A DNA stretch of 64,000 nt, from IMG/VR virus record IMGVR_UViG_2933953506_000002, positions 32,001 through 96,000 of that record. One strand, 5' to 3'. Below the pieces are notes generated by a model. The model did not search any database. It had not been told where the DNA came from and saw only the letters and a list, made by a program, of their open reading frames with translations. This DNA comes from a virus (taxonomy: Duplodnaviria; Caudoviricetes). The translations under genes were made by a program, and so were the position numbers. Position 1 is the first letter of the stretch; each line of letters begins with the position of its first letter. Positions 22,008-48,522 of the stretch are shown piece after piece.

Positions 22008-22361
22008 GTGACTACTCAGCGAACCTCCTGGGCGCTCGCGCGTGAAGCCGCCGGCCTGTTCCTCACCGCGTTCGGCCTGCTCGGCGTCCTCGTGGCGTTG
22101 GGCGCACTCCACTGGGCCGCCGGACTCTCCGCCGCGATGGCCGGTCTCCTCGCCACGGGCCTGTTCATGCGCCCGAAGCCGACCGCAGCGCCCTGGGCGC
22201 ACCTTGCCCGTGCCGCCGTCTGCATCCTCGGCTACGGCGGTCTCACCGGCTGCGCGTTCGCCCTCTGCACCCCCCTGGGCTGGATCGGCGTCGCCCTGGC
22301 GGTCGTGCTCCTCGGCCTGTGGCTCACCACCCGTGAGCACGAGGACGAGGGGGCCGCCTGA
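22008..22361 (+). CDS. small 4-TM membrane protein upstream of portal
   Basis: duplicated hydrophobic hairpins; stop overlaps the portal ATG (TGATG). Confidence 0.75.
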   Translation: MTTQRTSWALAREAAGLFLTAFGLLGVLVALGALHWAAGLSAAMAGLLATGLFMRPKPTAAPWAHLARAAVCILGYGGLTGCAFALCTPLGWIGVALAVVLLGLWLTTREHEDEGAA

Positions 22362-24820: not shown

Positions 24821-25062
24821 GACGCACAGCCAGCTTCATCCGACGGAACCTCAGCGCGTTTCTCTGGGGCGGCTGGGCGCTGTTCTTCGCCGTCTACGAG
24901 ACCATCGCGCTGATTACCAAGAAGGACGACGACACGCTGAGCGAGAACACGCGCAAGCTGTTCCGCATTCGCAGCTCGAAGGCAGGACGCGCCGCGTTCA
25001 CGGTCATCTTGGGCGGGGGCGCAGCGTGGTTCCTCCTGCACATCCTCACCGAGACGATGTAA
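24817..25062 (+). CDS. small 2-TM membrane protein
   Basis: AAGGAG RBS, GTGA overlap; two hydrophobic helices around DDTLSEN. Confidence 0.75.
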   Translation: MRRTASFIRRNLSAFLWGGWALFFAVYETIALITKKDDDTLSENTRKLFRIRSSKAGRAAFTVILGGGAAWFLLHILTETM

Positions 25063-25080
25063 GAGCGGGCTCGCGGGCGG

Positions 25081-25110
25081 CTTGCACAATTGTGCAAGAA
25101 CGATCTTGGG
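25081..25110. promoter_or_regulatory. 29-30 bp operator, copy 1
   Basis: perfect 18-bp palindrome CTTGCACAATTGTGCAAG plus AACGATCTTGGG; recurs at 42508 and inverted at 48523. Confidence 0.75.
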
Positions 25111-25133: not shown

Positions 25134-25163
25134 GCGACGCTAACCACCCGCACTGTGCATGGT
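25134..25163 (+). promoter_or_regulatory. phage late-promoter motif copy (leaderless ATG 25171)
   Basis: GCGACGCTAAC, CATGGT at +24, ATG at +37. Confidence 0.7.
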
Positions 25164-25170
25164 CCGCGCC

Positions 25171-28100
25171 ATGCTGAATCGCCCCACTGCACAGGCTGAG
25201 TCGCAGGACCTGAGTCGCGACCTCGAGGTCAAGGTCACGCGCCGGCCGTGGAACCCTGCCCTGCACCCCCGGGACAGCAAGGGCCGCTTCATCGAGACCG
25301 GCGGCGTGGTGAGGACCTGGGGCGGCAAGCTCGCGCGCGTCATCCGTGCGCTCCCGCACGACCGCATCCTCGTCCAGGACCAGACCGGCCCGGACGAGTT
25401 CCGCGGCCGCAGGCACACCACCAGTGCCAAGTGGGTCAGCATGGTCGCGCGCCCCGACGGCAGCGCGCCCACCGACGACGAAGAGAAGGTCGCCGAAGAG
25501 GACGAGCGGCGCACCCAGGACCCGCGCCGCGGCAACGGCGTTGCCCGCGACGACGACGGCGACCCCAACACCCCGAACGAGCCTCACGACCAGGACGACA
25601 AGGGCCGCCCGATCGGCGCCGATGACGGCGACGGCCCGGACGACGATGACGACCAGGACGAGCCCGAGGACGGCGCCCACCCGGTCAACGTCGATGCCCT
25701 GCCGAACCAGCAGCATGCCGCCGGGGCCCGGTACGCCGATACCGCCGCCGTCCGCCGCCACTTCATGCAGGTAGCCGCCCAGCCCGGCACGAGCACGGAC
25801 ATGGCCACCTTCCTGCGCTCGGTGGCACACGACGACGACCTGCGGACCACACCGTCCGGCCGACTCCTCATCCTCCTCGACGACCGGCCCGAACACGCCG
25901 GCCGCTGGAACCTCACCGCAACCGGCTCCGGACAGCGCGTCGACGCCGCCGGCACCTTTGCCACCGCCGAGGACGCCGCCCGATTCGCCGAACACCTCGA
26001 CAAGACCGCCGTCAACGGTCAGCTCACCAAGTTCCAGCAGCCGTTCGACTTCTCCGACCCACAACTGGACCGGGCCGCCCACGACTGGCGCTCCACCAAG
26101 GGCGAGAACATCCAGGGCGCCATCCAGCGGGCCCGCACGGAGTTCGACGGCACCCCGGCACCCGCGGCCGCGCCGAAGGCCACCACGGACAGCCCGACCG
26201 ACGGCAACGGCCAGCGCTTCAGCACGCTCCAGGCCGTTCGCGCCCACTGGCAGCAGCGCCTCGACCAGATCAACGAACTCGGCCCGGACAGCCTCCGAGA
26301 GCAGCGCGCCGCGCGACACCTGGAAGGCCTGATTGGCAACGACCGGATCAAGCTTGTCGGCCGCGGCCAGTTCGTCGTCGGCCAGGACCAGAACGGCGAG
26401 TGGTACCTGGTCGCCACTGGCAACGGCCTGCCGCTCCGCCGTCGGTGGACCTCCCAGCAGGAAGCGCAGGCATTCGCCCAGTCCTTCACCGAGAACGCCC
26501 CCATGGGCGACGACGGAAAGCCACTGGACCTCTCCGACCCCAACGTCCGCATCGCGACGTGGCGCTCGGACGACAACCGGTCGATCAGCGAGGTCATCGA
26601 CGCGGCCGCCGAGAGGTTCCAGCGCGACGACGCCGCGGAGGGCGGCCCGGAGGCGACCCCGGCGCCGGCCGCCGCTCCGGAGACGCCCGCCGCCCCGCAG
26701 GCACCGGAGACCCCGGAGGAGCCTCAGACGCCCGCACTGCCGGGCAACGCCGAGCCCGTCGAGGGCGTCGAGGGGTACCACTACGTCAACGACGGCGGCT
26801 CAATCACGCTGTACGGCCCGGACGGACAGGTCGCCGCGACCAGCGAGCGCGGCTACCCGCCGAAGGCCAAGATCGACGGCGTCACCGTGCCCGTGCCGCA
26901 GTACCCGAAGCAAGGCGCCGCGGTGATGGCCCGGCTGCACCGCGCCGCCCAGAACCCCGACCAGCGCGACCGGATCACCGCGGCGTGGGTGATGAAGCCC
27001 GGCAAGGAAGGCAAGCCCGCCAAGCGGGTCATGGTCTTCCGCGGCACCATCAAGGGCGACGAGCGGGACTACAGCGCCGTCGGCTCCACGCGTGCCATCA
27101 AATGGGCCCCGTCCCTGCGGGGGTACTCGACCCAGTCGAACATGACCGAGGCCACCCGGGACGAGCGGATTACCGAGGTCCTGTCCAAGCTCGCCCGCCA
27201 GGGCCGCAACATCCACGTCACCGACGAGACCGCCGCGGGCACCCCCAACGCTCCGGCCAACGCCGTCGACGAGACCGAGGCTCTGCGCGAGGCCATCGCC
27301 AACGCGGACGACCCCCGCCTGTCGCAGATGAAGCACGAGCGGTGGGGCATGCTCAACAGCACCCGCTCCGAGGCCAAGCGCAAGCGACTCAACTCCGAGA
27401 TCGAAATGATCAACGAGGAGTTGAAGCGCCGTCGGCAGGAGCGGGACGAGGCTGCCGCCCGGGACGCCACATCGCTCAGCGACGACGACATCGCCAACCG
27501 CATCCGCGAGTCGCAGGAAGAACGCGGCACGTACGGCTCCCGCAGGGGCCAGGAAGCCAACGACGTTGAGCGGGCCATCTACAGCGAGCGCCGCCGCCGT
27601 TCGCAGGCCCTCGTCGACGATGACACCGATCTGACCACGGCCGCTGAGGACGACCTGGTAAAGGCCCGCGAGACGATCGCCGAACGGGTCCGCATGCACC
27701 AGGCCGCCGGCGACGACCCCGAGGCCGAGCGCATCATGCGCCAGGCCCTGCAGGCGCGGCACGACGCCGTCGTCGGCGAGCAGCAGCGCCGCCATGCCCA
27801 GCAGATCGCCGACCGGCCGCCGGTCGTCGACCTCACCGACGAGGAACTGTCGCAGGAGTACAACGACTTGCTCCGGCGCGACTTCCGGAAGGCCCCGCCG
27901 GAGGCGCAGCAGGTCCTCGAGGGCCGCATGGAGGACGTCAAGCGGGAGCGCCGCGACCGGGAGAAGCGGGCTATCACCGACCGGGACGCCCCCGAGAACC
28001 TGAGTGATGAGGACCTGAAGGCGGAGTACACCGAGCTTCGCCGAACGCGCTCCTCGTACACCGGGACCGACGACGTCAAGGCGGCCCGCAAGGAACGCAT

Positions 28101-31100
28101 GGCCGTGCTGGAGGCCGAGCAGAACCGCCGCAGCACTACGCCGGAGGTCGAGCAGCTCGTCGCGCGCGTCGACAACCCCGACGACAACGGCATGATCAGC
28201 ATCGGCGGCGGCAGCGATTACGGCTACGTCGACTACCGGGACCAGACACACGGGCACACGACCCGCGAGATCGGATGGACCTGGGGCAAGCACAGTTGGG
28301 GGCACGCAGACACCGCCTACCCCTCCCGCGCCGCAGCTCTGGCAGCGATGGTCCAGGCGTACGACAACGACCCCGACACCCGCGGTGAGCGCACCTGGGG
28401 CCGTAAGCGCCCCGTGTTCGTGCCGAAGATGTTCGTCGAGCTCTACCAGAACGAGCGTCTTCGCGACCGGCTCGCCGATGCCAGCGAGGAGCGGAAGTAC
28501 CTCTACAGCCTGTTCCGGGACCGGTACGGCTGGGACGACGGCGTGAACCCCCTGGTGCCCAGCAACAAAAAGGGCCACCACATCAAGGGCCGGAAGCTGT
28601 GGGTGCCCGAAGGCCTCCTCGCCGAGCTGAACCGGGTGACGGAGGAGCTTTCCCGGGAGATGTCCGTACGGGCCACGGACCGGGACGCGGACAGTTCCGA
28701 CCGGCAGAAGGCCAAGACCCGGCTCGCGTCCATCAACGTGGCTCTGCACGGCATTGAGGCGCTGCGCGAGTCAGTCCGCAAGAATGGCGGGGACGACGAC
28801 CGGAAGGTCATCTCCCGCGAGGAGATCGAGGCACAGCAGGCCGCGCTCCGTGCAGCGCTGGGAGGCGACGATGACGAACATGTTCAGTCCGATGGTCCGG
28901 GATCACTGGCGGACGTACCGGCCCAAGGAGTGGGCGGCGATGACCGATCCGGAGGCGTTCGTGGAGACGAAGGCCAGGGAGATCGAGACTCAGATTCTGA
29001 AGGCCGAGGAGGCGCTGGAGCAGACGGTTCCGGAGCCGACGGAGTACGAGGAGCAGGTCGGCCGGCACAAGCAGATCAGGGCGGACGCAACGGCGATGGT
29101 CCTGGCGGATCTTCTGCCGGAGCCGGAGCCCGGGGCGGAGACGGCGCCGGAGCAGACGCCGATGGAGCAGCACCTGCAGGAGATCAGGGACCTGATGTAC
29201 GACGCGTAGCGCGGTTCCGGCCGGACCCGGCCGACGCGCCCAAGGGCGCCCGCGCGCGTGCGACGGCCAATGTCGAGGCCATCCGCGTCCTCAAGAAGGT
29301 TGAGGCCGAGAACCGGCCGGCCACCGACGAGGAGCGCCGCATCCTCGCCCGCTGGTCCGGCTGGGGCTCGGTTCCGATCCTCTTCGCCAACGAGCCGAAC
29401 GAGAAGGAGCCCCGCTACCAGCAGGGCGGCACCCGGTACGGCAAGTTCGCCAAGGACCACGAGCGGTGGTCCGAGTACAGCGACATTCGCAGCGAGTTGC
29501 AGCGCGTGCTCACGCCTGTGGAGTTCCGGCAGGCATCCCGCGGCGTGCTGTCCATGCACTACACGCCGCAGCCCATCGCTGAGGCGATGTGGGAAGGCCT
29601 TCGGGCATTCGGCTTCGAGCGCGGCGACGTCCTTGAAGCCGGCTCCGGCGCGGGCACGTTCTTCGGCGTCGCTCCGGACGGCGCCCGCCTGACCGGCGTC
29701 GAACTGGACCCGACCACGGCCCGGATCGCTCAGGCGATCTACCCGCACGCCAACGTTCTCAACGAGTCTTTCGCGGAGACCGACGCCCGGCCGGGCACCT
29801 TTGACGCCGCCATCGGCAACGTGCCCTTCGCTCGGGTCCCGTTCGATGACAAGCGGTACCCGGCAGAGAGCCTTCACAACGGCTTCGTCACCAAGGAGAT
29901 CGCCCTCGTCCGGCCCGGCGGTATCACCGCCGTCATCACCTCCCGCCAGACCCTCGACTCCAAGGGCGACAAGGCCCGCCGCCAGATGGCCAAGTACGGC
30001 GACCTGGTCGGCGCCGTCCGCCTGCCCTCCGGCGTCTTCACCGACGCCGGCACCGGGGTCACCACCGACGTCCTCGTGTTCCGCCGCCGCGAGGACGGCA
30101 CCGAGCCGGCCGACACGTCATGGCTGGACGCCCCTGAGCGGGACATCAACGGCACCGCGCACCACATCAACGCCTACTTCGACGAGCACCCCGAGCACAT
30201 CCTCGGCACGCTCACCACGCAGTCCGGCCCGTACGGGCCCGAGGTGACCGTCAAGGGCGACCCGGCCAAGGCCGCCGAGCAGCTTCGCGCCGCGCTCGAC
30301 GACATCGCCACCAAGGCGAAGGCCGACGGCCGCGGCTACGAGCCGCACCCCGACGGCGACAACCGGCCTCCGGTACAGCTCCAGGCGGCCCGGGAGAAGC
30401 ACGCGAACGACTGGACCGGCCGCCTCTACGAGGGCGACGACGGCCAGTTGTACCAGCACGTGAACGGTGCCGAACCGGTCCTGCTGGAGCCCGCCGACGG
30501 CAACACCGCCCAGCTTCGCGCCCTCATGCAGCTCCGCGACGTCGCCGCCGAACTGCGCGAGCTGGACCGGAAGAACGACGAGGAGGAGCGCGCCGAGGCT
30601 CTGCGCGCCCAACTCCGCGACTTGCACGCCGCCTACGTCGCCGAGTACGGCCCCCTGTCCAAGCCGGGCCAGCACCGCACCAAGGGCGGCCGCCCGACGG
30701 CGTGGGGGTACTTCCGGGCCGACCCGGACGCCGCGGCGGTCCTCGCTCTGGAACGGTGGGACGCCAACAAGGGTGAGCCTGTCCTCTCCCGCGTCTTCAC
30801 TGAGCGCGCCGCGGCCCGCCGACAGCCGCTCTCCTCGACCAACGACCCGAAGGCGGCCCTGGCCGCGGTCGTCGCTGCCAAGGGCGAAGTGGACCTCGGC
30901 GAGATCGCCCGGCTCCTCGACGTCACCCCGCAGGAGGCGGTGAAGCGCCTCGGCAACGAGGTCTTCACCGACCCGGAGACCGGCCGCCTCGAACTGGCCA
31001 GCGCCTACCTGTCCGGCGCCGTCCGCGACAAGCTCGACGCCGCCCGCAAGGCCGCCGAGCGCGACCCGGCGTACGCGGTCAACGTCGCCGCGCTGGAGGC

Positions 31101-34100: not shown

Positions 34101-37100
34101 CGCCCGCGTCACCAACCTGGACGCGAAGCCGGAGATCGACCCCGACGAACTCGACAAGGAGCGGTACAAGAACAAGGACGACCGCGAGAAGATCGCCAAG
34201 GGGCGGCGCGAGGAACGCGAGCCGCTGCAGGCCGCCGTCGACGAGGCCGTCGCGAACCTGCACCGCTGGGACGAGGAGAACCCGGCACCGGAGCAGGACG
34301 ACACGGTTCGCCTCTCTGAGGACGAGGTGCGCGAAGCTCTTGCCCGTCTCCGCCCGGAGCCCAGCACTACCCCGCAGCCGGACGCCCCGGAGACCAGCGA
34401 CCGCAGTTCCGCGGACGCCGACACCGACGTCGACGAGCCGAACACCGACGAGACGGCGACGCCTGACACCACCGGCGCAGGCAGCAGCGACGAGCCGCTG
34501 ACCGACACGCCAGCCGCGGGCGACACCGGGGCCCAGAACAACGGCCAAGACCAGGACGACGTCGTTCGCCTCTCCGAGGACGAGGTGAACAACACCCTCG
34601 CCAGCATCCAGCCGGACGCCGACACGACCGCCACCGACGAGCCGGACGAGCCCCTTCGGTACGCGTGGGACAAGCCCGAGGACTTCGTCACCCTGACCAT
34701 GCCGGCCGCACTCGTCAACTTCCTGAACGTCGACGAGACCGCCGCCATGGAGGACCCCGACACCCGGAAGGCTCTCAAGGAAGCCAAGCCGGGGCGCCGT
34801 GGCACGCTCCAGGTGACCGGCCCGATCGACGTACACCGCGCCCTCCTCCAGTGGGCATGGACGCTCGAGGGTGGAGAGGGGCTGGAGTCCGACCCCAGCG
34901 ATGTCCGGGCCTACAAGGCGTACGCCAAGCGCATCGAGGAGGCCGACGCCGACCTGCAGCGCCGTCGCGCCGAGCGGGAGACCGCGGCCGCCGCTGACTC
35001 CGACGAGAACGACGACGCCCCGGAGACCGACGGAACGAACGACGGCGGCAGCGACGAGCCGCCGGCCGACGCGCCGAGCACGGCTGAGCCGGGCGACGAG
35101 AACGACGACCAGGACCAGCGCACAGCGGAGGACAGCGACACCGTCACCCTGACCCCGGACGAGGTGTCCGACCAGCTCGACTCTGTACGCCCCGAGGGGT
35201 CCAAGGCCCCGTCCTCGATGGACGATGGCGAGATCCGCGACGAGATCGTCGACCTGATGGGCCGGGAGATGGCTGATGAGCTGTCCGGCGCGGACCGTAC
35301 CCGCCTGCAGGTCCTGGAAGCGGAGGAGGCCCGCCGTGCCGGCCGGGCCCCGAAGCAGGAGCCCAAGCCGAAGCGGACGACCGAGGAGCCCGGAGGACTC
35401 TTCGACGTCGACCAGCCCACCACCCAGCAGCCGAGCAGCGCCGCCGACGTCGACAACCCCGAGGACCAGCCCGACGACCTCTTCGGCACGCCGGACATGA
35501 TCGCCGACGCCGAGGGCCGCAGCACCGAGGGCCTGCGCCCGGCGCGCATGCGCAACGCCGCCGACCTGACCCAGGGCGACCGGTACACCGACGCAGACGG
35601 CCGCACGCACACCGTGTCCGAGCCGCCGGTCAAGACGCCTCGCGGCCGGACCCGACTCGTCACCGACGACGGCGAGGAGCGCTTCTACAACGCCGATGCC
35701 CAGGTGCGCCTGCGCTACCCGGACGAGGAGATCCCCGACAACGAGACCGACGAGCGGTCCGCCGACGACGATGCCGACAACGCCCCGGCCGTCGACGAAC
35801 CGGAGACCTCCGAGCCGGACGTCGACGAGCCCGCCGCCGACGAGCCGGAAACTACCGCGGACAGCGACCGCAGCAGCACCAAGGACCGCGTCGACCGCAT
35901 GTCAGGCCTCATCGACCAGGCCACCGACGGGGCGGGCGGTGACGAGCTGCCCGAGGTCAGCGAGATCCGGGACGCCTTGGGCCGGGCCGAGGACTCCGCC
36001 GACCCGGACGCCGAGCTGCGTTCCGCCGCCGACCGGCTCGACGACCTTGCGGAGATGTACGAGCTGGGAGGCCCGGACGGAGAGCACGCCGCAGACCTGT
36101 TCCGGCAGGCCGCCCGTATCGCGAGGGGCGAGGACGATGACGACCGCCGCGGCGACGACAACGACCGCAGCGAGGACGACAACGACGCCCCCGCCGCGAC
36201 GAACCAGGACTCCGAGGAGGACCAGGACGACGACGCGGGACGCTTGCAGCGGGACGGAGACGGCAACGCCGCCGACCCGAACGGCACCCCCGACGGAGGC
36301 GGCGCCGGTGCGCCCGACGCACCCGCCGACGACGAAGGCGACAGCGACAGCCCCGACGATGCCCCGGACAACGCTGACGACGAGCAGAACGAGCCGGACG
36401 CGGAGGACGAAGACGAGCAGGACGACGACCAGGAGCGCCGTCGCCGGCGTCGGCGCCGCCGCAACGGCGGAGGCGGTAACGGTGGCCCCGGCGGGCCTGG
36501 CGGCCCCGGACTGCCGCGCCTGAACCTCCCCGACCTCAAGACCCCGAACGCCAGCGGCGACGGCGGTGAAGGAGACAGCGAGGACGGCGCTGCCGCCCGC
36601 GGCCGCCGCCCGGCCGCACGGCACCGCGACGTGGCGTCCCTGCGGCGCGCTTGGAAGAACGGCGACGGGCTCACCGCCGCCGAGGACACCCCGGAGCGTC
36701 GCGCAGCCCTGGCCCAGGCAGCCGACCGGGACGGCCTGACGCTGTCCCCGGGCAGCGGCCTGGTCACATGGCCCGAACCGCAGGAAGACGGCACCACCCT
36801 GTGGCACTTCGCGCAGGCCCGGAACGGCAACAACCTGCCCGGCTTGTCCCTGGCCACGGACAACCCCGAGGAGGCCCGCGCCCTGGCTGGCCGCTTCGAG
36901 CAGATCACCGGCAGCGACGGTCAGCCCTTCGACTGGCACCGGCCGTGGGGCCCGAGCACCGTCACCCAGTGGCGCGACGGAGAAGGCCGCAACCTGCAGC
37001 GCGCCCTCCACGCCGTCCGCGACGACTTCGAGCAGCAGCGTGCCGCCTCCGCCCAGCCGGAGCCCACGACGGAGCCGGAACGGAGGGCACTGCCGGACGA

Positions 37101-40100
37101 CCTCACCGGCCTGGACGACGACGAGCTGGTCGACGCGTGGAGCAACGACCTCAGCGACGAGGACCAGCAGCGCCTTATGGCGGAGATGGACCGCCGCGAC
37201 GGCTACACCGACCAGCGCGTTCGTGACGTGCTGCCGGACACCCCGCCGGCCGACGCCGAAGAGGCCGAGCGCCGTGCGAAGGCCGTCGACGAGGCCCTCG
37301 GCTTCGGGGGCGTCGACGTCCCGCGCGTGCGCCGCACCCGTGAGGACATCATCCGTGCGGAGTTCGCCGACTTCGACGAGGCCCGCTACCAGGCCGCCAT
37401 CGACGCCACGAACGGCTACTTCTACGCCCGGAAGTACAAGTACGGCAGCGGCATCAACGAACGAGAGCTGTTCTCCGGCGGTGAACTCGCCAAGTTCGGC
37501 CGCTGGGAGGAGTACGCCAGCGAGGAACTGAAGGACTGGTACAAGGCCAACGGCGGCCGCATCACGTACAACCAGTTCCGGCAGACCTACCGGGACAACG
37601 ATCGCCGGGACCGGCAGCAGTTCGAGGAGGAGCAGCGCCGCCAGGCGGAAGTCGGGCAGACCGAGGAGCCCACGACCCCGGAGACCGAGCCGTACGACCC
37701 GGCCACGCCGCGCTTCGCGGACGAGGCGGCCCTTCGGGATCACATCCGCAGCGGGCAGCTCGACGAGGTGCCCGAGGACCAGCGTGGGGACATTCCCTCA
37801 GCCGAGGAACGCGCGGAGATCGCCGATGCCGAGAGCACCCAGCTCTCCGACGGCGGCCGACTGCTCATCTACGGCAACGAGGCCGGTCGCGCTGGCAGCC
37901 GCCGCGGACAGCGGTTCGACGTGGCCCTTCCAGGCAGCATGCAGCCCCTGTTCCGCAACGGCTTCCACAGCGCCGAGGAGGCCCGCAAGTACGCCAGCGT
38001 CCTCGACGGCATCAAGGACACGGACGGCAACGCGTTCCCGTGGGACGCCCCCAACGTCGCCGAGCGCGCCCGCGCGTTCCGCACCGCCGACGGCAACCGC
38101 CTGTTCGACGAGATCACGGAACGCCTGTACGGCTTCAACGAGCTCTACGAGCAGTGGAACAGCGACCGCGGCCAGGCATTGCACCACCGGACGTGGAGCC
38201 AGCAGGAAGCCGACTGGAACACCCGCGAGGAGGAGGCCGGCTACTCGATCCCCGTCGACCTGACGGACATCCGCCCCGGCGACGAGATCAGCTTCCCCCT
38301 GGCCACGAGCCGCGGGCAGAACACGCGGCCGCAGGACGAGTACGTGGGAACCGTGCACGCCACGGTGACCGGCGAGGGAGAGCCCTTCCAGTACCGCTCG
38401 CAGTTCTCCGCCTTCGGGAACCAGCAGCTCTACCGGTTCCCGGCCGAAGGCTCTTGGACCAACCAGTACGGAGAGCACAGCGAGATCGATGAGGCGTTCC
38501 CGAACCTGGGAGTCGTCCGTCGCCGCCCGCGGCCCGACGAGGTGTCCAGCACGGGCGACGGCCGCGACGACCGTTCGTCCCGCGCGGACACCCCGCAGGC
38601 GGAGACGCCGGGCACCGCGACGCCCCCCTCGCGCCGGCAGCCCGCCCCGGACCGCGCTCCTGCGGAGCCGGAGCCCGCCGTGCCCTCGGCGCCGGCCGAC
38701 GAGCCGCAGGGTGAACCCGAGCCCGTGGGCGGTCAGCCCGCACACTGGGCGCGTGTCCGCGACCTGGTGCCGGGCGACATGGTCCGTATGGAGGGCCGCA
38801 CGAGGAACGGCCGCGCCATCACGCGGTCTGGTTACGTCTTCACCGGGCCCGTCGACGTGGAGGTCACTCGCAACGGCCGCACGGAGCGGATGCTGCGCAC
38901 GTACGTCACGGAGAACCCGGACGGCACCGGTAAGAGCGGCAACGTCTTCACGCCGCTGAACGCCACCGCGGCGCGGGCCGAGGCGCCCGACGACGTGGTG
39001 CCCGGGTCTCCGGCCAGCGGCGCTCAGAGCACCGTTCAGGCGGGCAGCCTCCCCGACGTGGTCCCCACGGACCGGAACGGCCGGGGCTTGTTCCCGGGTA
39101 GCACCGTCACCGGTGTTGACGGGCTGCGTACCCGTGAGGGCACCGTCACGGGCGCCACCAACACCACGGTGTCGGTGCGCTGGGACAACGACGACACCGC
39201 CGACGGCCTCTCGCCGAACACCCTCACCGTAACCGGTGGCGACCGCCCCGACGGCTGGACCTCGTCCGGGCAGCGCGTGACCCCGCGGCACATCGTAACC
39301 GACACCGAGGGCGCTCTCCTCGGGCCAGTCGACGAGGTCAACGGCGACCGCGTCACCATCACCACCGCCGAAGGCACCATCACGCGGAGCGCCGGAGACC
39401 TCCGCGTCGCCGGCGAAGTGCGCGACGACGCCCCGGGCACCGACCCCGTCACCGGCATCGACGACCCGGCGGCCGCGGACCTCAAGGAGGACGACGTCGT
39501 GGTCCTGGACCTCGACGGCACGCCGACCACCGTGGCGGTCACCGGTATCAACCGCGAAGGCGACCGCGTCACCATCGACTTCGCCGACACCACCACGGGC
39601 GAGATCGGCCAGATCGACGTGGACGCCTCCCAGGTCATCCCCCGGGCCCAGGGCGCCGACGGCACCCCGCCCGACCTCGGGCCGGACGACGCCCCAGACA
39701 CCCCGGACGACCTAACCGTGCACGAGCCGCCGCACCGCGTCGAACCCGTCACCGGCCCGACCGTCGACCCCGACCTCACGACGGGCGACCGAGACGTCAT
39801 CGGTGACCTCGCCGACGGCCCGGACGACGACCCCGACGCCCAGCAGGCCGCCGTACGCATCACGGCCGACCTGCCCGTCACCCCGGAGCAGGCCGCCGCA
39901 CTCGCCGCGCAACTCCGCGATTCCGCCGACCCCTCGACCCCGGAGGGCCGCGCCGCCCTGCGTGCCGCCAACCACCTTGACCGGGCCATCGGCCGGACCC
40001 CTCCGCCCGAGCTCAACCGGCCGCGGCCGTCGAACGCCGCACAGGTCGCGGAAGACGACACGATCGCCATCCCCGACAACCAGGGCAACGGCGTACGCGT

Positions 40101-42219
40101 CTACCGCGTCCGGGGTGTCGAAGACGGCCCCGGCGGTACGCGCAGCCTCTTCCTGGAAGGCGAGGACGGCCGTACACGCCGCCGCGTCGTCCACGGAGCG
40201 ATGCCGCTGTGGCAGCTCGGTGAGCCCCAGTCGGACGGCGAGAGCGGACCGGACGACACCGCCCTCGTGCCGGGCGCCCCGGCTGCGCCGACCCCGAGCC
40301 TGCCGCCGGCCGGTGCTCCGCGGGACCCCAACCCGTCTCCGCAGTCCGACGCCGACCGCATCGTCGCCGACCACCCCCGCGCCGTAGCTGCGCGGATCAT
40401 CGACGCGGCGATTGCGGGCACCGAACCGCCCGGTGACATCCACGCGCTTCGTGAGCAGATCGCCCAGCGCCTCACCGCCGAGGCCCTGCGCGATGCACGT
40501 CAGGCCGCTCGCCAGGACGCCGTGGCCGCGTTGGATGCCGCGGGCATCACCGGCCGCGACCGGTCCGCAGCGCTGCAAGCCCTCAAGAGGGCGCGGCAGA
40601 AGGCGCACACCGCGACGGTGCGCGCCGCCCTGCGCACCATCAACGACCTGGAGCCGCTGCCCGACGAGAGCGACGAGGACCTCGCCGCGCGAGCCCGCGA
40701 CCTCCTCAGCCTCATTCCCGACCAGATGGGAGGCACCCCCAACGGGCTCGACGACGACGGCGATGCAGACGTCGCCCGCACCGTCGCTGGGCACGTCGAC
40801 GACGCCGTGAACGCGATCATGCAGCAGCTCCAGGCCGCGGGCATGGACCCGGGCGACGCCGACCGCATCGCCCGCCTCCTCACTCAGCAGATGAACGGCT
40901 CCCGACAGGCCACCGCCCGGCAGATCGCCCGTCGAGTTACGGCCGTGTCCCCGCAGGCTGGCCGCCAGCCGGGTCTGCTCGCCCGGATCGTGGCCGCGCT
41001 CGTCCGTCTCGCCAAGCGCTTCGCGGAACTTGTGCGGGCCGGAGCCCGGAAGATCGCAGGGAAGTACCGCAGTGCCCGCGAGCGGCTGCGTCGTCTGCGC
41101 GCCTTCCTCGGCCGCCTCGCCCGTCGCGTGCGGGAGTGGCCGGAGTCCCGGCGCCTGGCTCGCCTGCACCGCGCCCTCGACCTGCCCGGAGCCGACGGCG
41201 AGTCCCTGGCCGCCCGGATCTCCCACTGGGCCGGCCTGATGCCGGAGGCCGGACGCTTCGGTCAGGCTCAGCGCCGTGTCACGTGGTGGAGGCCCACGAC
41301 GTGGGCGCAGCTTGCCGCCGGACGACTCCCTGGCCGAAGCGACCGCACCCAGTGGGCCCCGGACCAGGCCGCGGACGCTGGCCCCGGCCTGACCGCGCTC
41401 CGCCACCTGGCAGCGCTGAGGGCGGCCGGCGGCGACGTCGACCAAGACGTGACCCGCCGTCTGGCCGACACTCTCGGCGACGACTTCGGCGGCGACCCTC
41501 ACGGCACGCTGCAGCGCGCGGACGACTACGTGGCGCTCACCGAACGCCGCCTGGTCAACCTCCAGGCCGCGCGGACGGGCGGCACCCTGCCGGATGACCC
41601 CGACCTCGAGGTCGAGATCACTGCGGCTCGGGCCGAAGCCGCGGCCGCGCGCCGAGAGTGGGCGGACCTGCGGGCTCAGTACGCCGCGGCGGTCCCGGAC
41701 GCGGTCGCGGCGACCCTCGCCGAGATCCGCGACATGGGACCTGCGGGGAACGCCGGCATCGTGTTCGGCCCGGACTCCACGCCGGACGCCGAGCGGGCCG
41801 TACGGGGCGTGCAGCGCATCGTGCCTCAGGCGTGGCTCAACACCCCGGCCACGCGCCGACTGACGGCCGTTGACGGCGACGAGGGCCGCTACGAGCCCGA
41901 CGGACAGCGAATCACCGTCGCCGACCTCGCCGACGACGGGCTGGGCACCGCCGGGCACGCCCTAGCGCAGCACCTTGCCCAACACCTGGGAGACCTGGAC
42001 GCCGCCCAGCGCGCGTTCTGGTTCAACCAGACCCACACCGGCCGACCGGGCGCCCGCCGCATGCGGCGCAGCACCCTCAGCCGCATCCTGCGTCGCCAGC
42101 AGACGCAACCGGACACCGGTGACACCCTCGCCCGGTCCGTTCAGTCGATGTTCAATGGCGACTGGTACCTGGATGACGACCTGCGGGCGTTCCTCCTGGG
42201 CCTGCTCGCCACCCGATGA
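25171..42219 (+). CDS. giant (~5,680 aa) polyvalent virion-associated protein with DarB-like adenine methyltransferase plus SNF2/SF2 helicase core
   Basis: WNPALHPRDSKGRF; MTase VLEAGSGAGTFF, GVELDP, AIGNVPF; helicase AHEVGLGKT, VDEAH, ATGTPLSNS, GTGMNAQ, EQRNGRILR; lies between portal and protease; start refined from promoter spacing. Confidence 0.88.
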   Translation: MLNRPTAQAESQDLSRDLEVKVTRRPWNPALHPRDSKGRFIETGGVVRTWGGKLARVIRALPHDRILVQDQTGPDEFRGRRHTTSAKWVSMVARPDGSAPTDDEEKVAEEDERRTQDPRRGNGVARDDDGDPNTPNEPHDQDDKGRPIGADDGDGPDDDDDQDEPEDGAHPVNVDALPNQQHAAGARYADTAAVRRHFMQVAAQPGTSTDMATFLRSVAHDDDLRTTPSGRLLILLDDRPEHAGRWNLTATGSGQRVDAAGTFATAEDAARFAEHLDKTAVNGQLTKFQQPFDFSDPQLDRAAHDWRSTKGENIQGAIQRARTEFDGTPAPAAAPKATTDSPTDGNGQRFSTLQAVRAHWQQRLDQINELGPDSLREQRAARHLEGLIGNDRIKLVGRGQFVVGQDQNGEWYLVATGNGLPLRRRWTSQQEAQAFAQSFTENAPMGDDGKPLDLSDPNVRIATWRSDDNRSISEVIDAAAERFQRDDAAEGGPEATPAPAAAPETPAAPQAPETPEEPQTPALPGNAEPVEGVEGYHYVNDGGSITLYGPDGQVAATSERGYPPKAKIDGVTVPVPQYPKQGAAVMARLHRAAQNPDQRDRITAAWVMKPGKEGKPAKRVMVFRGTIKGDERDYSAVGSTRAIKWAPSLRGYSTQSNMTEATRDERITEVLSKLARQGRNIHVTDETAAGTPNAPANAVDETEALREAIANADDPRLSQMKHERWGMLNSTRSEAKRKRLNSEIEMINEELKRRRQERDEAAARDATSLSDDDIANRIRESQEERGTYGSRRGQEANDVERAIYSERRRRSQALVDDDTDLTTAAEDDLVKARETIAERVRMHQAAGDDPEAERIMRQALQARHDAVVGEQQRRHAQQIADRPPVVDLTDEELSQEYNDLLRRDFRKAPPEAQQVLEGRMEDVKRERRDREKRAITDRDAPENLSDEDLKAEYTELRRTRSSYTGTDDVKAARKERMAVLEAEQNRRSTTPEVEQLVARVDNPDDNGMISIGGGSDYGYVDYRDQTHGHTTREIGWTWGKHSWGHADTAYPSRAAALAAMVQAYDNDPDTRGERTWGRKRPVFVPKMFVELYQNERLRDRLADASEERKYLYSLFRDRYGWDDGVNPLVPSNKKGHHIKGRKLWVPEGLLAELNRVTEELSREMSVRATDRDADSSDRQKAKTRLASINVALHGIEALRESVRKNGGDDDRKVISREEIEAQQAALRAALGGDDDEHVQSDGPGSLADVPAQGVGGDDRSGGVRGDEGQGDRDSDSEGRGGAGADGSGADGVRGAGRPAQADQGGRNGDGPGGSSAGAGARGGDGAGADADGAAPAGDQGPDVRRVARFRPDPADAPKGARARATANVEAIRVLKKVEAENRPATDEERRILARWSGWGSVPILFANEPNEKEPRYQQGGTRYGKFAKDHERWSEYSDIRSELQRVLTPVEFRQASRGVLSMHYTPQPIAEAMWEGLRAFGFERGDVLEAGSGAGTFFGVAPDGARLTGVELDPTTARIAQAIYPHANVLNESFAETDARPGTFDAAIGNVPFARVPFDDKRYPAESLHNGFVTKEIALVRPGGITAVITSRQTLDSKGDKARRQMAKYGDLVGAVRLPSGVFTDAGTGVTTDVLVFRRREDGTEPADTSWLDAPERDINGTAHHINAYFDEHPEHILGTLTTQSGPYGPEVTVKGDPAKAAEQLRAALDDIATKAKADGRGYEPHPDGDNRPPVQLQAAREKHANDWTGRLYEGDDGQLYQHVNGAEPVLLEPADGNTAQLRALMQLRDVAAELRELDRKNDEEERAEALRAQLRDLHAAYVAEYGPLSKPGQHRTKGGRPTAWGYFRADPDAAAVLALERWDANKGEPVLSRVFTERAAARRQPLSSTNDPKAALAAVVAAKGEVDLGEIARLLDVTPQEAVKRLGNEVFTDPETGRLELASAYLSGAVRDKLDAARKAAERDPAYAVNVAALEAVQPPDRTIGQFTPEMGAHWTPPELLQGFLREYLGDRTLRVAHDDRYGWILNTGRVPEANNVMYGVPAVEPDPEKGIKGNKGKNAVEIARAILGFGSLTVYEDDKRKEVDEATSRLIRQKADQMRAEFAKYATANAERLSVLTDSYNRIMNGHIVRSYEGMSPTLEGFTPDRNPHAWQRSGAARMQFERGVILAHEVGLGKTSTLVMGTQALKASGQIEKPMAVVPNHLARQWYNEARFLYPNADIHLITSADLAGDRRGSTLEWLRANRPDLVIFTEEAFGSIKMSPEAQDEYEFRELEALREQLDRQYEDADNPNHPFIVAKIEQRIATVSKNINKNAAPMRRPGETYWDDLGFDYFVVDEAHRYKGVGFRSKEGGGDPASIRGVDLHQKTSDLHRRRQGRATITLATGTPLSNSISEQFTMLMFAAPWVLDAYKAGAPDLWANTFGRKTLRIENAPDGSGLRVVERFSEFHNKRAMKTMWGLVADTKRGDDVGIPRPKLKGGKPNLIMVDATPDQKKRLKGLVARGRAIHNGEVDRHQDNMLAVSNEGTSVALDPRLIDAKAPAGNKLKAVADRHIERYHQNKDRLYPVALDSLVNHPVPGALQMIFLNEGVPGGKNKGNFDAYAELKRLMVAGGIPADKIAFVQDAKKSGKPEDMTELFRKAREGEIAVLIGSSAVAGTGMNAQDRMISLSHVDLDWGAAQMEQRNGRILRYGNLNPEVEIDIYATKGSMDGWKAGFVAAKAEGLVDIQRPEPEDGDSSDVVQEIDGAEFDYETMEAEIGGNPYMSQLMKAKRRLKDLEIDQHNEAAERIRRAEALDALRQEAQATRDGIQRREQALPSIQEADDRFRMTIDGSPYGERSDAGKALHRQITSRLLEHNREGLSDWHILGQFRGLDFGVRTEKTADGKLVAHVGFPDLRHSDFERTVEDLQKKGAGSGMITRLGNALDKAPALQESDRAKVPELDEQIALLQSAHAAADLTPQIDHARKRSNLLEEIVARVTNLDAKPEIDPDELDKERYKNKDDREKIAKGRREEREPLQAAVDEAVANLHRWDEENPAPEQDDTVRLSEDEVREALARLRPEPSTTPQPDAPETSDRSSADADTDVDEPNTDETATPDTTGAGSSDEPLTDTPAAGDTGAQNNGQDQDDVVRLSEDEVNNTLASIQPDADTTATDEPDEPLRYAWDKPEDFVTLTMPAALVNFLNVDETAAMEDPDTRKALKEAKPGRRGTLQVTGPIDVHRALLQWAWTLEGGEGLESDPSDVRAYKAYAKRIEEADADLQRRRAERETAAAADSDENDDAPETDGTNDGGSDEPPADAPSTAEPGDENDDQDQRTAEDSDTVTLTPDEVSDQLDSVRPEGSKAPSSMDDGEIRDEIVDLMGREMADELSGADRTRLQVLEAEEARRAGRAPKQEPKPKRTTEEPGGLFDVDQPTTQQPSSAADVDNPEDQPDDLFGTPDMIADAEGRSTEGLRPARMRNAADLTQGDRYTDADGRTHTVSEPPVKTPRGRTRLVTDDGEERFYNADAQVRLRYPDEEIPDNETDERSADDDADNAPAVDEPETSEPDVDEPAADEPETTADSDRSSTKDRVDRMSGLIDQATDGAGGDELPEVSEIRDALGRAEDSADPDAELRSAADRLDDLAEMYELGGPDGEHAADLFRQAARIARGEDDDDRRGDDNDRSEDDNDAPAATNQDSEEDQDDDAGRLQRDGDGNAADPNGTPDGGGAGAPDAPADDEGDSDSPDDAPDNADDEQNEPDAEDEDEQDDDQERRRRRRRRRNGGGGNGGPGGPGGPGLPRLNLPDLKTPNASGDGGEGDSEDGAAARGRRPAARHRDVASLRRAWKNGDGLTAAEDTPERRAALAQAADRDGLTLSPGSGLVTWPEPQEDGTTLWHFAQARNGNNLPGLSLATDNPEEARALAGRFEQITGSDGQPFDWHRPWGPSTVTQWRDGEGRNLQRALHAVRDDFEQQRAASAQPEPTTEPERRALPDDLTGLDDDELVDAWSNDLSDEDQQRLMAEMDRRDGYTDQRVRDVLPDTPPADAEEAERRAKAVDEALGFGGVDVPRVRRTREDIIRAEFADFDEARYQAAIDATNGYFYARKYKYGSGINERELFSGGELAKFGRWEEYASEELKDWYKANGGRITYNQFRQTYRDNDRRDRQQFEEEQRRQAEVGQTEEPTTPETEPYDPATPRFADEAALRDHIRSGQLDEVPEDQRGDIPSAEERAEIADAESTQLSDGGRLLIYGNEAGRAGSRRGQRFDVALPGSMQPLFRNGFHSAEEARKYASVLDGIKDTDGNAFPWDAPNVAERARAFRTADGNRLFDEITERLYGFNELYEQWNSDRGQALHHRTWSQQEADWNTREEEAGYSIPVDLTDIRPGDEISFPLATSRGQNTRPQDEYVGTVHATVTGEGEPFQYRSQFSAFGNQQLYRFPAEGSWTNQYGEHSEIDEAFPNLGVVRRRPRPDEVSSTGDGRDDRSSRADTPQAETPGTATPPSRRQPAPDRAPAEPEPAVPSAPADEPQGEPEPVGGQPAHWARVRDLVPGDMVRMEGRTRNGRAITRSGYVFTGPVDVEVTRNGRTERMLRTYVTENPDGTGKSGNVFTPLNATAARAEAPDDVVPGSPASGAQSTVQAGSLPDVVPTDRNGRGLFPGSTVTGVDGLRTREGTVTGATNTTVSVRWDNDDTADGLSPNTLTVTGGDRPDGWTSSGQRVTPRHIVTDTEGALLGPVDEVNGDRVTITTAEGTITRSAGDLRVAGEVRDDAPGTDPVTGIDDPAAADLKEDDVVVLDLDGTPTTVAVTGINREGDRVTIDFADTTTGEIGQIDVDASQVIPRAQGADGTPPDLGPDDAPDTPDDLTVHEPPHRVEPVTGPTVDPDLTTGDRDVIGDLADGPDDDPDAQQAAVRITADLPVTPEQAAALAAQLRDSADPSTPEGRAALRAANHLDRAIGRTPPPELNRPRPSNAAQVAEDDTIAIPDNQGNGVRVYRVRGVEDGPGGTRSLFLEGEDGRTRRRVVHGAMPLWQLGEPQSDGESGPDDTALVPGAPAAPTPSLPPAGAPRDPNPSPQSDADRIVADHPRAVAARIIDAAIAGTEPPGDIHALREQIAQRLTAEALRDARQAARQDAVAALDAAGITGRDRSAALQALKRARQKAHTATVRAALRTINDLEPLPDESDEDLAARARDLLSLIPDQMGGTPNGLDDDGDADVARTVAGHVDDAVNAIMQQLQAAGMDPGDADRIARLLTQQMNGSRQATARQIARRVTAVSPQAGRQPGLLARIVAALVRLAKRFAELVRAGARKIAGKYRSARERLRRLRAFLGRLARRVREWPESRRLARLHRALDLPGADGESLAARISHWAGLMPEAGRFGQAQRRVTWWRPTTWAQLAAGRLPGRSDRTQWAPDQAADAGPGLTALRHLAALRAAGGDVDQDVTRRLADTLGDDFGGDPHGTLQRADDYVALTERRLVNLQAARTGGTLPDDPDLEVEITAARAEAAAARREWADLRAQYAAAVPDAVAATLAEIRDMGPAGNAGIVFGPDSTPDAERAVRGVQRIVPQAWLNTPATRRLTAVDGDEGRYEPDGQRITVADLADDGLGTAGHALAQHLAQHLGDLDAAQRAFWFNQTHTGRPGARRMRRSTLSRILRRQQTQPDTGDTLARSVQSMFNGDWYLDDDLRAFLLGLLATR
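28871..29209 (+). CDS. TnpV-like small protein (112 aa) nested in an alternative frame inside the giant ORF
   Basis: GGAGG at 28861, ATG 28871; high-GC3 codons in this frame while the host frame becomes A/T-ending and G/D/R low-complexity; HWRTYRP..W..M.DP..F...EYEEQVGR..Q.R..A. Confidence 0.75.
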   Translation: MTNMFSPMVRDHWRTYRPKEWAAMTDPEAFVETKAREIETQILKAEEALEQTVPEPTEYEEQVGRHKQIRADATAMVLADLLPEPEPGAETAPEQTPMEQHLQEIRDLMYDA

Positions 42220-42229
42220 GGAGGTAGCC

Positions 42230-42499
42230 GTGCCGTTCACTGTCACCGGCGCGTTCGACGACGGGGCGACCTACAGCGTGCAGGTCACCGGGCGGGCCGA
42301 CCGCCCGGTGATCGGGTCGTACCGGGCCAGCGCCCTGGTGGAGCTCCACCAGGGGAGCCCGATCTCCCTGTCCCCGACCGGCCCCGTCCGTACGGTGGCC
42401 GGGGACGATGAAGCGACCGTGCTCGCAGTGCTTCGGGAGTACACCAGGGTCGTCGAGGAGGGGCCTGGCGCTCCCCGGCAGGCCAGTGTTCCCGGGTGA
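42230..42499 (+). CDS. small hypothetical protein immediately downstream of the giant gene
   Basis: GAGGAGG RBS plus GTG 42230. Confidence 0.75.
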   Translation: MPFTVTGAFDDGATYSVQVTGRADRPVIGSYRASALVELHQGSPISLSPTGPVRTVAGDDEATVLAVLREYTRVVEEGPGAPRQASVPG

Positions 42500-42507
42500 T
42501 TCAGGCG

Positions 42508-42537
42508 CTTGTGTAATTGCGCAAGAACGATCTTGGG
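42508..42537. promoter_or_regulatory. 29-30 bp operator, copy 2
   Basis: CTTGTGTAATTGCGCAAG-AACGATCTTGGG. Confidence 0.75.
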
Positions 42538-42594
42538 CCGGGGTGGGGCAGTTGTGGCCGGGACACAAGCGGCCCCGCCCGTCATCCTCCGCCC

Positions 42595-45508: not shown

Positions 45509-45623
45509 GCGACGTTAACCCCTCTCTCCCTCTTCACTCCCGCCTCGCGTTGAGGCTGTCCCGGTGCTGGCCGGGCGGAGCGACGCACGTCAACCGCACC
45601 CCAGCACCAGGGAGAGAGCAGCA

Positions 45624-48516: not shown

Positions 48517-48522
48517 GGGGCA

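Follow-up and report, generated by a model that had tools for sequence, protein, structure and literature searches.

The window analysed here, a 64,000-nucleotide (nt) stretch of IMG/VR record IMGVR_UViG_2933953506_000002, contains a single gene of about 17 kb lying between the portal gene and the prohead protease gene of a phage. The question raised by this locus is what a protein of that size does in a head-assembly module. The source record is an IMG/VR provirus of 115,774 bases (CheckV completeness 89%), in keeping with the prophage origin assumed by an earlier reading of the sequence alone (hereafter the sequence-only reading); it carries two tyrosine-recombinase genes. Among named phages, Streptomyces phage Gilgamesh (129 kb), which can be grown on S. 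lividans JI 1326, is the nearest, with 78% nucleotide identity over 48% of a 24.6-kb query. In our judgement the giant protein is probably, though by no means certainly, a packaged and injected DarB-like polyvalent protein that would shield incoming DNA from restriction. Judged from its sequence, the protein is not an enlarged DarB: its methyltransferase (MTase)-helicase dyad is a cassette of roughly 2,500 amino acids (aa) inserted in a conserved carrier.

A DarB-like cassette in a conserved carrier

The giant gene and the domains of its DarB-like core are as follows.

25159..42219, plus strand: giant open reading frame (ORF; P0001), one coding frame, 5,686 aa counted from the first ATG
28732..34299, plus strand: DarB-like span, aa 1192-3047, matched by phrog_10089; core of the first-slot cassette (cassette about aa 560-3047)
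29230..30126, plus strand: N6-adenine MTase, aa 1358-1656, phrog_11801 DNA methyltransferase, expectation value (E) 1.7e-154
31654..33249, plus strand: SNF2-type superfamily 2 (SF2) helicase, aa 2166-2697, PF00176 (E 4.4e-8) and PF04851 (E 7.3e-6), both above cut-off

The sequence-only reading had described one uninterrupted ORF of ~5,680 aa starting at 25171, which is Met5 of the same frame. High G+C content favours long spurious frames, many of which are seen in the window, and a frame of this length could be imagined as several genes fused through sequencing or assembly error; no other support for such a fusion was found. The G+C contents at the three codon positions (GC1/GC2/GC3) of the giant ORF were 0.74/0.49/0.90 overall. 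When the ORF was divided into 23 bins of 250 aa, 22 of them had a GC3 of at least 0.85; the lone low bin (0.71) corresponds to a Gly/Asp/Arg low-complexity stretch, aa 1251-1500. This is the coding signature of a high-G+C actinomycete gene, and it is uniform over the full length of the frame. A single frame of 5,424-5,854 aa was kept in all 13 independent core-bearing IMG/VR relatives in which the whole gene could be read, and public protein sets (NCBI, JGI or Logan) contain about 70 clusters of 5,200-6,300 aa. These three results refute the merged-gene artefact, to which we assign a negligible probability.

Profile searches identified the core as DarB-like. The phrog_10089 profile ('DarB-like antirestriction') matched three overlapping segments of the giant protein with E values of 6.7e-23, 5.7e-262 and 4.4e-44, the match being limited to profile positions 1416-3272 of 4647. 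The MTase retains intact motif I (EAGSGAG at aa 1493) and motif IV (NVPF at aa 1554, within GNVPF at aa 1553-1557); Pfam gave only sub-threshold MTase matches to this domain. Helicase motifs I, II, III and VI are likewise intact (GLGKTS at nt 31690, DEAH at nt 32182, TGTP at nt 32326 and QRNGR at nt 33220). The helicase also matched PF00271 slightly under the cut-off (E 1.5e-4), and DrmD, DpdE and BrxH-type helicase models gave weak matches to it. An adenine MTase at ~29230-30310 with NVPF at 29818 and an SF2/SNF2 helicase at ~31620-33330 had been called beforehand, and both calls agree with the domains found at 29230-30126 (NVPF at nt 29818) and 31654-33249. The giant protein thus carries the marks of the DarB dyad: the MTase motifs, a C-terminal SNF2 helicase and the phrog_10089 match.

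BLASTP established the relationship to P1 DarB directly. The MTase is 31% identical to P1 DarB over aa 1464-1644 (E 9e-25), with GNVPF common to both, and the helicase follows in colinear order, with 25% identity in the N lobe (E 1e-13) and 31% in the C lobe (E 6e-9). In P1 DarB (2,255 aa), as in the giant protein, an N6-adenine MTase precedes an SNF2-type helicase; the two proteins are colinear over aa 1464-2750 of the giant protein, and the darB gene also adjoins the portal gene. Passages on DarB in two publications describe it as a head protein, present in about 40 copies and bearing a 30-aa capsid-targeting signal at its N-terminus (PMC9024508), that is packaged in the head and protects DNA in cis (PMC5512222, PMC9024508). 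The differences are considerable, however. Identity is 25-31% and confined to the dyad, the giant protein is 2.5 times longer, no part of DarB matches its N-terminal, module or C-terminal parts, and the 30-aa DarB signal is unrelated to it in sequence. None of the P1 helpers DarA, Hdf, Ulx, DdrA and DdrB was among the PHROG matches of ten neighbouring proteins, although no search aimed at them was made.

Relatives of the core were found in 140 phage records, all at less than 60% identity, and 29 of them cover at least 80% of the query. They include Bcep22, BcepMigl, DC1 and JC1, in which the protein is annotated 'DarB-like antirestriction'. The Bcep22-type giants (Bcep22 gp75 and JC1 gp69; phrog_10089) resemble the giant protein in being single polypeptides of more than 4,500 aa, encoded in a virion module, and in carrying this dyad, 75% of the core query aligning at 32% identity. 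Their flanks, in contrast, are unrelated to the carrier and in some records are annotated with a transglycosylase; according to the genome description of JC1 in PMC9144972, as far as its passages on this gene go, these are podophages of Gram-negative hosts with the gene at the far end of the structural module. The same passages report the 4,515-aa JC1 gp69 in virions purified on caesium chloride, with 51 unique peptides. The core is therefore homologous both to P1 DarB and to the Bcep22-type 'DarB-like' giants, as the sequence-only reading had held for P1.

The part of the protein that surrounds the core also exists without it. Gilgamesh gp48 (4,624 aa) is an orthologous carrier in the same genomic place, sharing with the giant protein aa 1-333 (69% identity), 3151-3558, 3785-4193, 4523-5024 (71%) and 5044-5686 (78%), so that the last 1,160 aa are 71-78% identical. 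It differs in that the whole MTase-helicase cassette is missing: nothing in gp48 matches aa ~350-3150 of the giant protein, the DarB-like span included. In its second slot it has instead about 1,600 aa of its own without a Pfam or PHROG match, and gp48 as a whole gave 0 Pfam and 0 PHROG matches. The same two arrangements recur in IMG/VR contigs. The core is colinear in 13 of them; in five others (L006, L008, L009/L028, L020/L029 and L021) the N-terminus is joined directly to the block at aa ~3150, the whole gene being present in four of the five and L021 being cut at its 5' end. Six further contigs had no core within the 10 kb examined.

Homologues that share the C-terminal 643 aa form at least 150 clusters at 90% identity, of which 120 were listed; the named sources of the listed clusters are all Streptomyces. 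They fall into three cargo sets.

SNF2/PF28553-5 set: 69 of the 120 listed clusters, 5,213-6,321 aa
UvrD-type helicase set: 7 of the 120 listed clusters, 4,439-5,331 aa
Carriers without a Pfam domain: 44 of the 120 listed clusters, 3,209-5,140 aa

The two enzyme cassettes occupy different slots. The MTase-SNF2 cassette lies before the block of aa 3151-3565 (first slot), and the UvrD cassette lies after it (second slot; aa 1224-1785 of P0136). PF28553, PF28554 and PF28555 are precomputed assignments on homologues, one JGI bearer of which is named 'N12 class adenine-specific DNA methylase'. Members of the family are currently annotated 'hypothetical', 'SNF2-related' or 'UvrD-helicase'. The expected homology to DarB holds for the core, but the protein is not a 'much larger DarB relative': the rest is a carrier that also exists without the dyad or with UvrD. 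Because 44 of the 120 listed clusters have no recognisable enzyme, the carrier has a function of its own.

A partial 3,085-aa protein from Kitasatospora (P0229), 52% identical in the N-terminal block, carries the SNF2 set as well as the UvrD set. By sequence, the carrier family extends past Streptomyces (Kitasatospora, Nonomuraea) and can hold both cargoes together. P0229 resembles a 12,242-aa protein of an S. viridifaciens plasmid mentioned in the text of Iyer et al. (PMC5512222), passages of which also mention UvrD-bearing giants in actinomycetes. The carrier belongs to a large family in Streptomyces prophages, including elements of about 125-130 kb. In many Streptomyces assemblies the homologous gene is on a contig of 124-132 kb, close to Gilgamesh in size, one of which (124,398 bp) is labelled as a plasmid, and in others on chromosomes of 8-11 Mb; this phage group may often persist as an extrachromosomal as well as an integrated prophage.

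Candidate docking parts of the carrier

The carrier regions referred to below are the following.

25159..25473, plus strand: N-terminal block, aa 1-105, an invariant motif followed by a small beta-barrel (aa ~50-97)
25726..26148, plus strand: repeat module copy 1, aa 190-330, alpha/beta
26212..26622, plus strand: repeat module copy 2, aa 352-488, from profile search
34300..34344, plus strand: tail-like peptide 1, aa 3048-3062, DTVRLSEDEVREALA, in the acidic linker just past the cassette
34558..34602, plus strand: tail-like peptide 2, aa 3134-3148
35137..35181, plus strand: tail-like peptide 3, aa 3327-3341, DTVTLTPDEVSDQLD
36616..37032, plus strand: repeat module copy 3, aa 3820-3958, from profile search
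37708..38130, plus strand: repeat module copy 4, aa 4184-4324, from profile search
40288..42216, plus strand: C-terminal region, aa 5044-5686, conserved across 25 relatives at 62-96% identity
41782-42216, plus strand: zincin-like core, last ~145 aa, with HExxH changed to HALAQ (aa 5600-5604, nt 41956-41970)

Near its N-terminus the carrier has an invariant motif, W-N-P-x-LHPRDSKGRFIETGG, which runs from W31 to G49 (nt 25249-25305). All 26 locus rows that were examined have it (some rows share a contig), as do 110 of the 120 listed clusters, and it occurs once in the record. The N-terminal sequence singled out by the sequence-only reading, WNPALHPRDSKGRF, was found where it had been placed, at aa 31 (nt 25249-25290). 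An AlphaFold2 (AF2) model of the N-terminal region has strands at aa 50-97, with predicted local distance difference test (pLDDT) scores of 69-80, and Foldseek returned weak KOW/Tudor-like rows for this model (best E 0.049). The block is a candidate capsid- or portal-docking signal.

The ~136-aa module is the only true repeat that we found. Self-BLASTP of the giant protein revealed zero internal repeats at E ≤0.01, and the module surfaced by profile methods only. A profile search found 59 copies in 19 giants, and each of the 120 listed clusters has 2-4 copies. AF2 modelled copy 1 as an alpha/beta block with pLDDT mostly 71-89. No Pfam, PDB or usable ESM Atlas match was obtained for the module. 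Four beta-rich segments at aa 4515-4850 were considered as SH3/Tudor-type repeats and rejected, as iterative hidden Markov models (HMMs) hit only the orthologous position (19-22 domains in 19 giants). Thus, of the more than 4,000 aa of repeated modules claimed previously, about 3,830 aa do lie outside the DarB-like span, but the repetition consists of one 136-aa module in four copies and three short peptides. Pfam, NCBIfam and PADLOC had nothing for aa 1-1190 or aa 3900-5686, PDB sequence searches were empty for aa 490-1191 (best E 0.42) and aa 3048-5043 (best E 0.03), and no Pfam 'LPD' family matched any part of the protein. Acidic linkers separate parts of the carrier, with Asp plus Glu reaching 36% in aa 3501-3750. 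Directly C-terminal to this most acidic linker come eight consecutive arginines and then a stretch rich in Gly, Pro and Asn (RRRRRRRRNGGGGNGGPGGPGGPG; aa ~3742-3765, nt about 36380-36460).

The C-terminal domain had 93 matches among 1.84 billion representatives; in nearly all of these proteins (436-7,217 aa) it forms the extreme C-terminus. The AF2 model of the C-terminal region (pLDDT 87.4; predicted template modelling score 0.82) contains strands at 238-244, 248-250 and 255-259 and helices at 266-280 and 282-296 in model numbering. This topology of three strands, a motif helix and a second helix fits the MPTase core as described in the text of Iyer et al. (PMC5512222). HExxH occupies the columns aligned with HALAQ in 8 of 11 distant homologues, and it occurs within the last 260 aa in 46 of the 93 representatives. 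Both the Glu and the second His were lost in the giant protein and in all 24 close relatives derived from the loci, of which 19 have HALAQ and five have variants. The distant homologues also have an extra segment of about 23 columns, absent in the close relatives, whose last residue is a conserved Glu, a possible third zinc ligand. From these comparisons we read the domain as homologous to HExxH-bearing proteins and zincin-like, with catalysis lost.

Database searches with this domain gave faint signals. Structure searches with the model returned weak, non-significant rows to lethal factor, IrrE, SprT and M34; ESM Atlas gave low-recognition leads only (ATLF 0.91); and in BFVD three phage proteins, all uncharacterised, ranked highest (E 3.5e-5 to 4.5e-3, TM 0.38-0.44). 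A PDB search with the C-terminal profile (A3) had as its best match a designed helical protein (E 0.022). In a permissive Pfam scan of eight HExxH-bearing distant homologues, only P0078 had a weak zinc-peptidase match (E 0.0059 and 0.038, below cut-off), and Pfam found no family in 12 of 13 other bearers of the domain. The decayed domain is presumably kept as a binding module. A precedent for a peptidase-like domain in packaging is the N4 virion RNA polymerase, a giant protein, unrelated in its cargo (RNA polymerase), that is packaged and ejected and whose MPTase-containing region is required for encapsidation according to the passage on N4 in PMC5512222.

With the MTase, the SNF2 helicase, the zincin-like domain and at least two domain types without assignment in one polypeptide, the assignment to the polyvalent proteins was upheld. 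Text passages of Iyer et al. (2017, PMC5512222) describe these proteins as coupling an adenine MTase to a SWI2/SNF2 ATPase, with an MPTase hub and a late or packaging context with MuF. The giant protein shares the many domains per polypeptide, the MTase-SNF2 coupling, the zincin-like domain and the MuF context; it differs in having lost the peptidase motif and in lacking an 'LPD' family. Those passages mention neither the two-slot carrier nor its 136-aa module or protease-tail copies, although the family may be in the supplement. The comparison supports a phage-type polyvalent protein that appears to be built as carrier plus cargo.

Three short peptides in the linkers of the giant protein resemble the C-terminal tail of the prohead protease encoded downstream. 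The tail comprises the last 19 aa of the protease (nt 45340-45396), ending in DTVRLDEDEVKSVLAMMRS. A hypervariable acidic linker precedes it, yet the tail itself is conserved in 20 of 21 loci, and its motif ends five residues before the stop. A tail pattern, composed after its four instances had been seen, has four matches when all six frames of the 115.8-kb record are scanned: three are in the giant protein and one is at the end of the protease. A 19-residue tail HMM used with hmmsearch behaved erratically and missed obvious copies (L031), and it was replaced by a weight-matrix scan with shuffle controls. The position-specific scoring matrix (PSSM), built from 19 distinct protease tails only, gave scores of 33.0, 17.4-17.5 and 17.7 for peptides 1, 2 and 3, respectively, compared with null maxima of 16.6 (380 whole-protein shuffles) and 17.1. 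Copies above the 99th percentile of the per-protein null were present in 16 of 19 complete giants, in 82 of the 120 listed clusters (whole-protein shuffles) and in 91 of 121 proteins (60-aa block shuffles). Peptide 3 has counterparts in cassette-free carriers (Gilgamesh gp48 at aa 801, L006, L009 and L020). We know of no case in the literature in which copies of a protease tail occur inside a second, giant protein.

HK97 gp4 and herpesvirus scaffold proteins end in a short conserved C-terminal peptide behind a variable linker, as does this protease. By analogy with them, we propose that the tail-like peptides may fasten the giant protein to the inner wall of the capsid while it assembles. A different role, instead of or besides docking, would be that of cleavage sites for the prohead protease, the giant protein being a polyprotein that is cut in the head to release the cassette. 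The same sequence at the end of the protease would then be a self-processing site. Several observations are compatible with cleavage. The peptides lie at module boundaries within disordered acidic linkers, and one of them directly follows the MTase-SNF2 cassette (aa 3048), just as a tail-like copy directly follows the UvrD cassette in 4 of 7 UvrD carriers. Since the peptidase domain of the carrier is dead, any processing would need another protease, and Iyer et al. suggest that polyvalent proteins are processed within the head or once delivered (PMC5512222). The position of the motif in the protease, however, speaks against this role: in 20 of 21 loci, exactly five residues lie between its end and the stop. 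As a cut there would free only a few residues, a terminal docking helix fits better than a cleavage site. In addition, no cleavage specificity is known for the S78-type protease group. We regard cleavage as a live but less likely alternative, and docking remains our preferred explanation of the peptides.

Proposed packaging in the head and competing explanations

The genes that flank the giant gene are listed here in map order.

22361..24820, plus strand: portal protein with a C-terminal MuF domain, PF04860 Phage_portal (E 5.2e-42), phrog_2662 portal (E 5.9e-83)
24817..25062, plus strand: 81-aa small protein with two hydrophobic stretches, at the position of Gilgamesh gp47 'membrane protein'
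42224..42499, plus strand: small gene 3' of the giant ORF, ~91 aa, start uncertain, syntenic with Gilgamesh gp49
42517-43200, plus strand: 227-aa frame, start uncertain, very acidic and Pro/Glu/Ala-rich with a small C-terminal globular part, syntenic with Gilgamesh gp50
43202-43411, plus strand: 69-aa protein at the position of Gilgamesh gp51, annotated 'ribosome modulation factor'
43471..45399, plus strand: S78 prohead protease fused to NUDIX, 642 aa, PF04586 (E 1e-10) and PF00293 (E 3.4e-17)
45564..46913, plus strand: HK97-type major capsid protein, PF05065 (E 2.9e-30), phrog_10 (E 2.5e-34)

The gene order is therefore portal-MuF, the 81-aa gene, the giant gene, three small genes, protease-NUDIX and capsid. 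It is identical in Gilgamesh, where gp48 ('hypothetical protein') takes the place of the giant gene, and the head-assembly module is conserved in Gilgamesh and in the IMG/VR relatives. The location between portal-MuF and prohead protease given by the sequence-only reading was thus borne out by the flanking genes at 22361-24820 and 43471-45399. The giant gene lies downstream of portal-MuF with one 81-aa gene between them, which is the head or packaging context of polyvalent proteins. The MuF part of the portal fusion (aa 735-810) matched PF04233 Phage_Mu_F under the curated cut-off (E 4.8e-5), the fusion protein also matched phrog_2468 head morphogenesis (E 4.2e-20), and Gilgamesh gp46 is annotated 'portal and MuF-like fusion protein'. 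No PF04233 match was present in any of the four segments of the giant protein that were scanned. At the N-terminus of P0034 (2,835 aa), a distant protein that shares the C-terminal domain, is a MuF domain 47% identical (E 2e-24) to the portal-fused MuF.

From the synteny, the protease-tail copies, the single MuF fusion and the precedents of P1 DarB and JC1 gp69, we infer that the giant protein is packaged and injected. The gene would be expressed with the head genes, with its own palindrome-bearing upstream element. During procapsid assembly the protein would be incorporated with the N-terminal block and the dead-peptidase C-terminal domain as docking parts, while one to three tail-like peptides would anchor it at the inner capsid surface, presumably at the site of the protease tail. 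It would leave the head with the DNA, aided by its beads-on-a-string build. In the new host, the SNF2 motor would track along the incoming DNA and the methylase would modify it, giving protection from restriction in cis as with P1 DarB. Expression, packaging, ejection and antirestriction activity are thus each predictions of this scheme.

A broader version of this scheme makes the carrier a modular delivery chassis. The N-terminal block, the decayed zincin and the tail-mimic peptides would load the carrier, and at least two slots would swap DNA-tracking enzymes (MTase-SNF2, UvrD and others not yet recognised) during an arms race against host defences, the mimic serving as a portable capsid-targeting tag. 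We put this version forward tentatively, as a possibility that we doubt somewhat more than we believe it.

Several results weigh against packaging and delivery as set out above. No publication on the carrier family was found, although the supplementary tables of Iyer et al. 2017 may list it. Neither the N-terminal nor the C-terminal AF2 model had a match in the PDB by Foldseek at E ≤0.001, and a VIA wide search with the C-terminal model aligned its helical hairpin only (Z ≤9.3), which is uninformative. The N-terminal block was not found on a distinct smaller cargo protein, the 32 shorter hits being mostly fragments of the family; with no distinct cargo type carrying it, the block is not shown to be a portable signal. 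The MuF fusion occurs in one of the 93 representatives only, with a Pfam score below the curated cut-off. As to the tail-like peptides, the pattern was drawn up with its four instances in view, 38 of the 120 listed clusters and 3 of the 19 complete giants have no copy over the threshold, and the counts of 82 and 91 come from related proteins and so reflect conservation, not independent origin. The argument for docking leans on an analogy, namely that HK97 protease and herpesvirus scaffold tails bind the capsid interior. Finally, the carriers without a recognisable enzyme (44 of the 120 listed clusters) have a function that this scheme does not name.

A rival proposal makes the carrier chiefly a structural or ejection component of the head, with the cassette as an optional, minor passenger. 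The carrier might, for instance, plug the portal, spool DNA, form a channel or be an internal body, and its conserved role would lie in mechanics (assembly or genome delivery) rather than in anti-defence. The N-terminal block, the modules and the C-terminal domain persist at 60-97% identity in the enzyme-free carriers and in Gilgamesh gp48, no relative examined has the gene anywhere but between portal and protease, and a catalytically dead peptidase-like domain suits binding. The carrier has, however, taken up two different DNA-tracking cassettes (MTase-SNF2 in 69 and UvrD in 7 of the 120 listed clusters), which points to action on DNA in a conflict setting. Nor does the lack of a Pfam domain equal the lack of an enzyme, as about 1,600 aa in the second slot of Gilgamesh gp48 are unassigned, and sizes ranging from about 3,200 to 6,300 aa are unusual for a fixed structural part. 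A chiefly structural role is thus unlikely in our view.

The giant protein could also stay out of the head altogether and act late in the cytoplasm as a methylase-helicase that modifies progeny DNA, its position among the head genes reflecting late timing only. Phage methylases that act in the cytoplasm are common. For such a role, however, a conserved non-enzymatic carrier of about 3,800 aa, an invariant N-terminal block and the tail copies would be superfluous; moreover, homologous giants are virion components in P1 and JC1, and one distant relative is fused to MuF. We consider a cytoplasmic enzyme very improbable, and delivery of the giant protein with the phage DNA is the explanation that we retain.

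Neighbouring features and meaning of the carrier family

The sequence-only reading had also proposed a wider head-cargo system that included the NUDIX protease and the small genes nearby. For the NUDIX domain there is some support. In Arthrobacter phages Sonali and Mufasa8, the 'portal and MuF-like fusion protein' contains a NUDIX domain with 47-49% identity to the NUDIX part of the protease fusion (aa 195-342); a portion of the 'capsid maturation protease' of Pseudanabaena phage Pam4 is 44% identical to that part. NUDIX seems to have been attached repeatedly to head-assembly proteins, as if it were head cargo. The small neighbouring genes are neutral with respect to this proposal. The 227-aa acidic protein, which had no PHROG or Pfam match, might be a scaffold or another head-internal protein. 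The 69-aa protein had no PDB sequence match, and a ribosome modulation factor, as gp51 at this place in Gilgamesh is labelled, is an odd gene to find inside a head module. The likely true start of the capsid gene is the ATG at 45624, and by analogy the coiled-coil-like N-terminal ~100 aa of the capsid protein may be a scaffolding or delta domain.

Upstream of the head genes, a 748-aa protein (16537-18783, plus strand) has a UDP-glucose/GDP-mannose dehydrogenase in its C-terminal 415 aa, and a family 4 glycosyltransferase (GT4; 20214-21380, plus strand) also matches PF20706 'GT4 in conflict systems' (E 1.4e-7). Gilgamesh has other genes at this position. The pair may be a phage sugar-modification module or may be host genes.

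A 38-nt element accompanies the giant gene and occurs only three times in the 115.8-kb record.

25072..25110, plus strand: copy 1, an 18-nt perfect palindrome CTTGCACAATTGTGCAAG followed by AACGATCTTGG, ~49 nt 5' of the giant ATG
42499..42537, plus strand: copy 2, in the same orientation as copy 1
about 48500-48538, minus strand: copy 3

Copies 1 and 2 are direct repeats that bracket the giant gene and the small gene after it. Among 18 relatives examined, the upstream element lies 47-51 nt before the giant frame in five, and the downstream element lies 302-307 nt past the giant stop in seven, Gilgamesh among them. Compensatory changes preserve the palindrome in relatives (GCACAATTGTGC to GCCCAATTGGGC and the reverse), and the element is probably an operator or promoter of a phage regulator. 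The 17.4-kb segment could also be lost by recombination between the direct repeats.

Virion-borne giants of the DarB-like and polyvalent kinds already form a known class. What is new here is the carrier family and its map, with two cargo slots for different DNA-tracking enzymes, a decayed zincin and copies of the protease tail. The family is large in Streptomyces and relatives, comprising at least 150 clusters at 90% identity, and its parts are now mapped. The C-terminal domain is a clear case of a peptidase domain retained after loss of its catalytic motif, presumably as a binding module. Should the tail peptide act as a capsid-targeting tag, the entry of a 600-kDa protein into the head would be explained, and there would be a simple handle for loading foreign proteins into actinophage capsids. 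The exchangeable enzyme cargo amounts to a natural experiment on the activities that phages deliver ahead of their DNA in hosts rich in restriction, BREX/Pgl and further defence systems.

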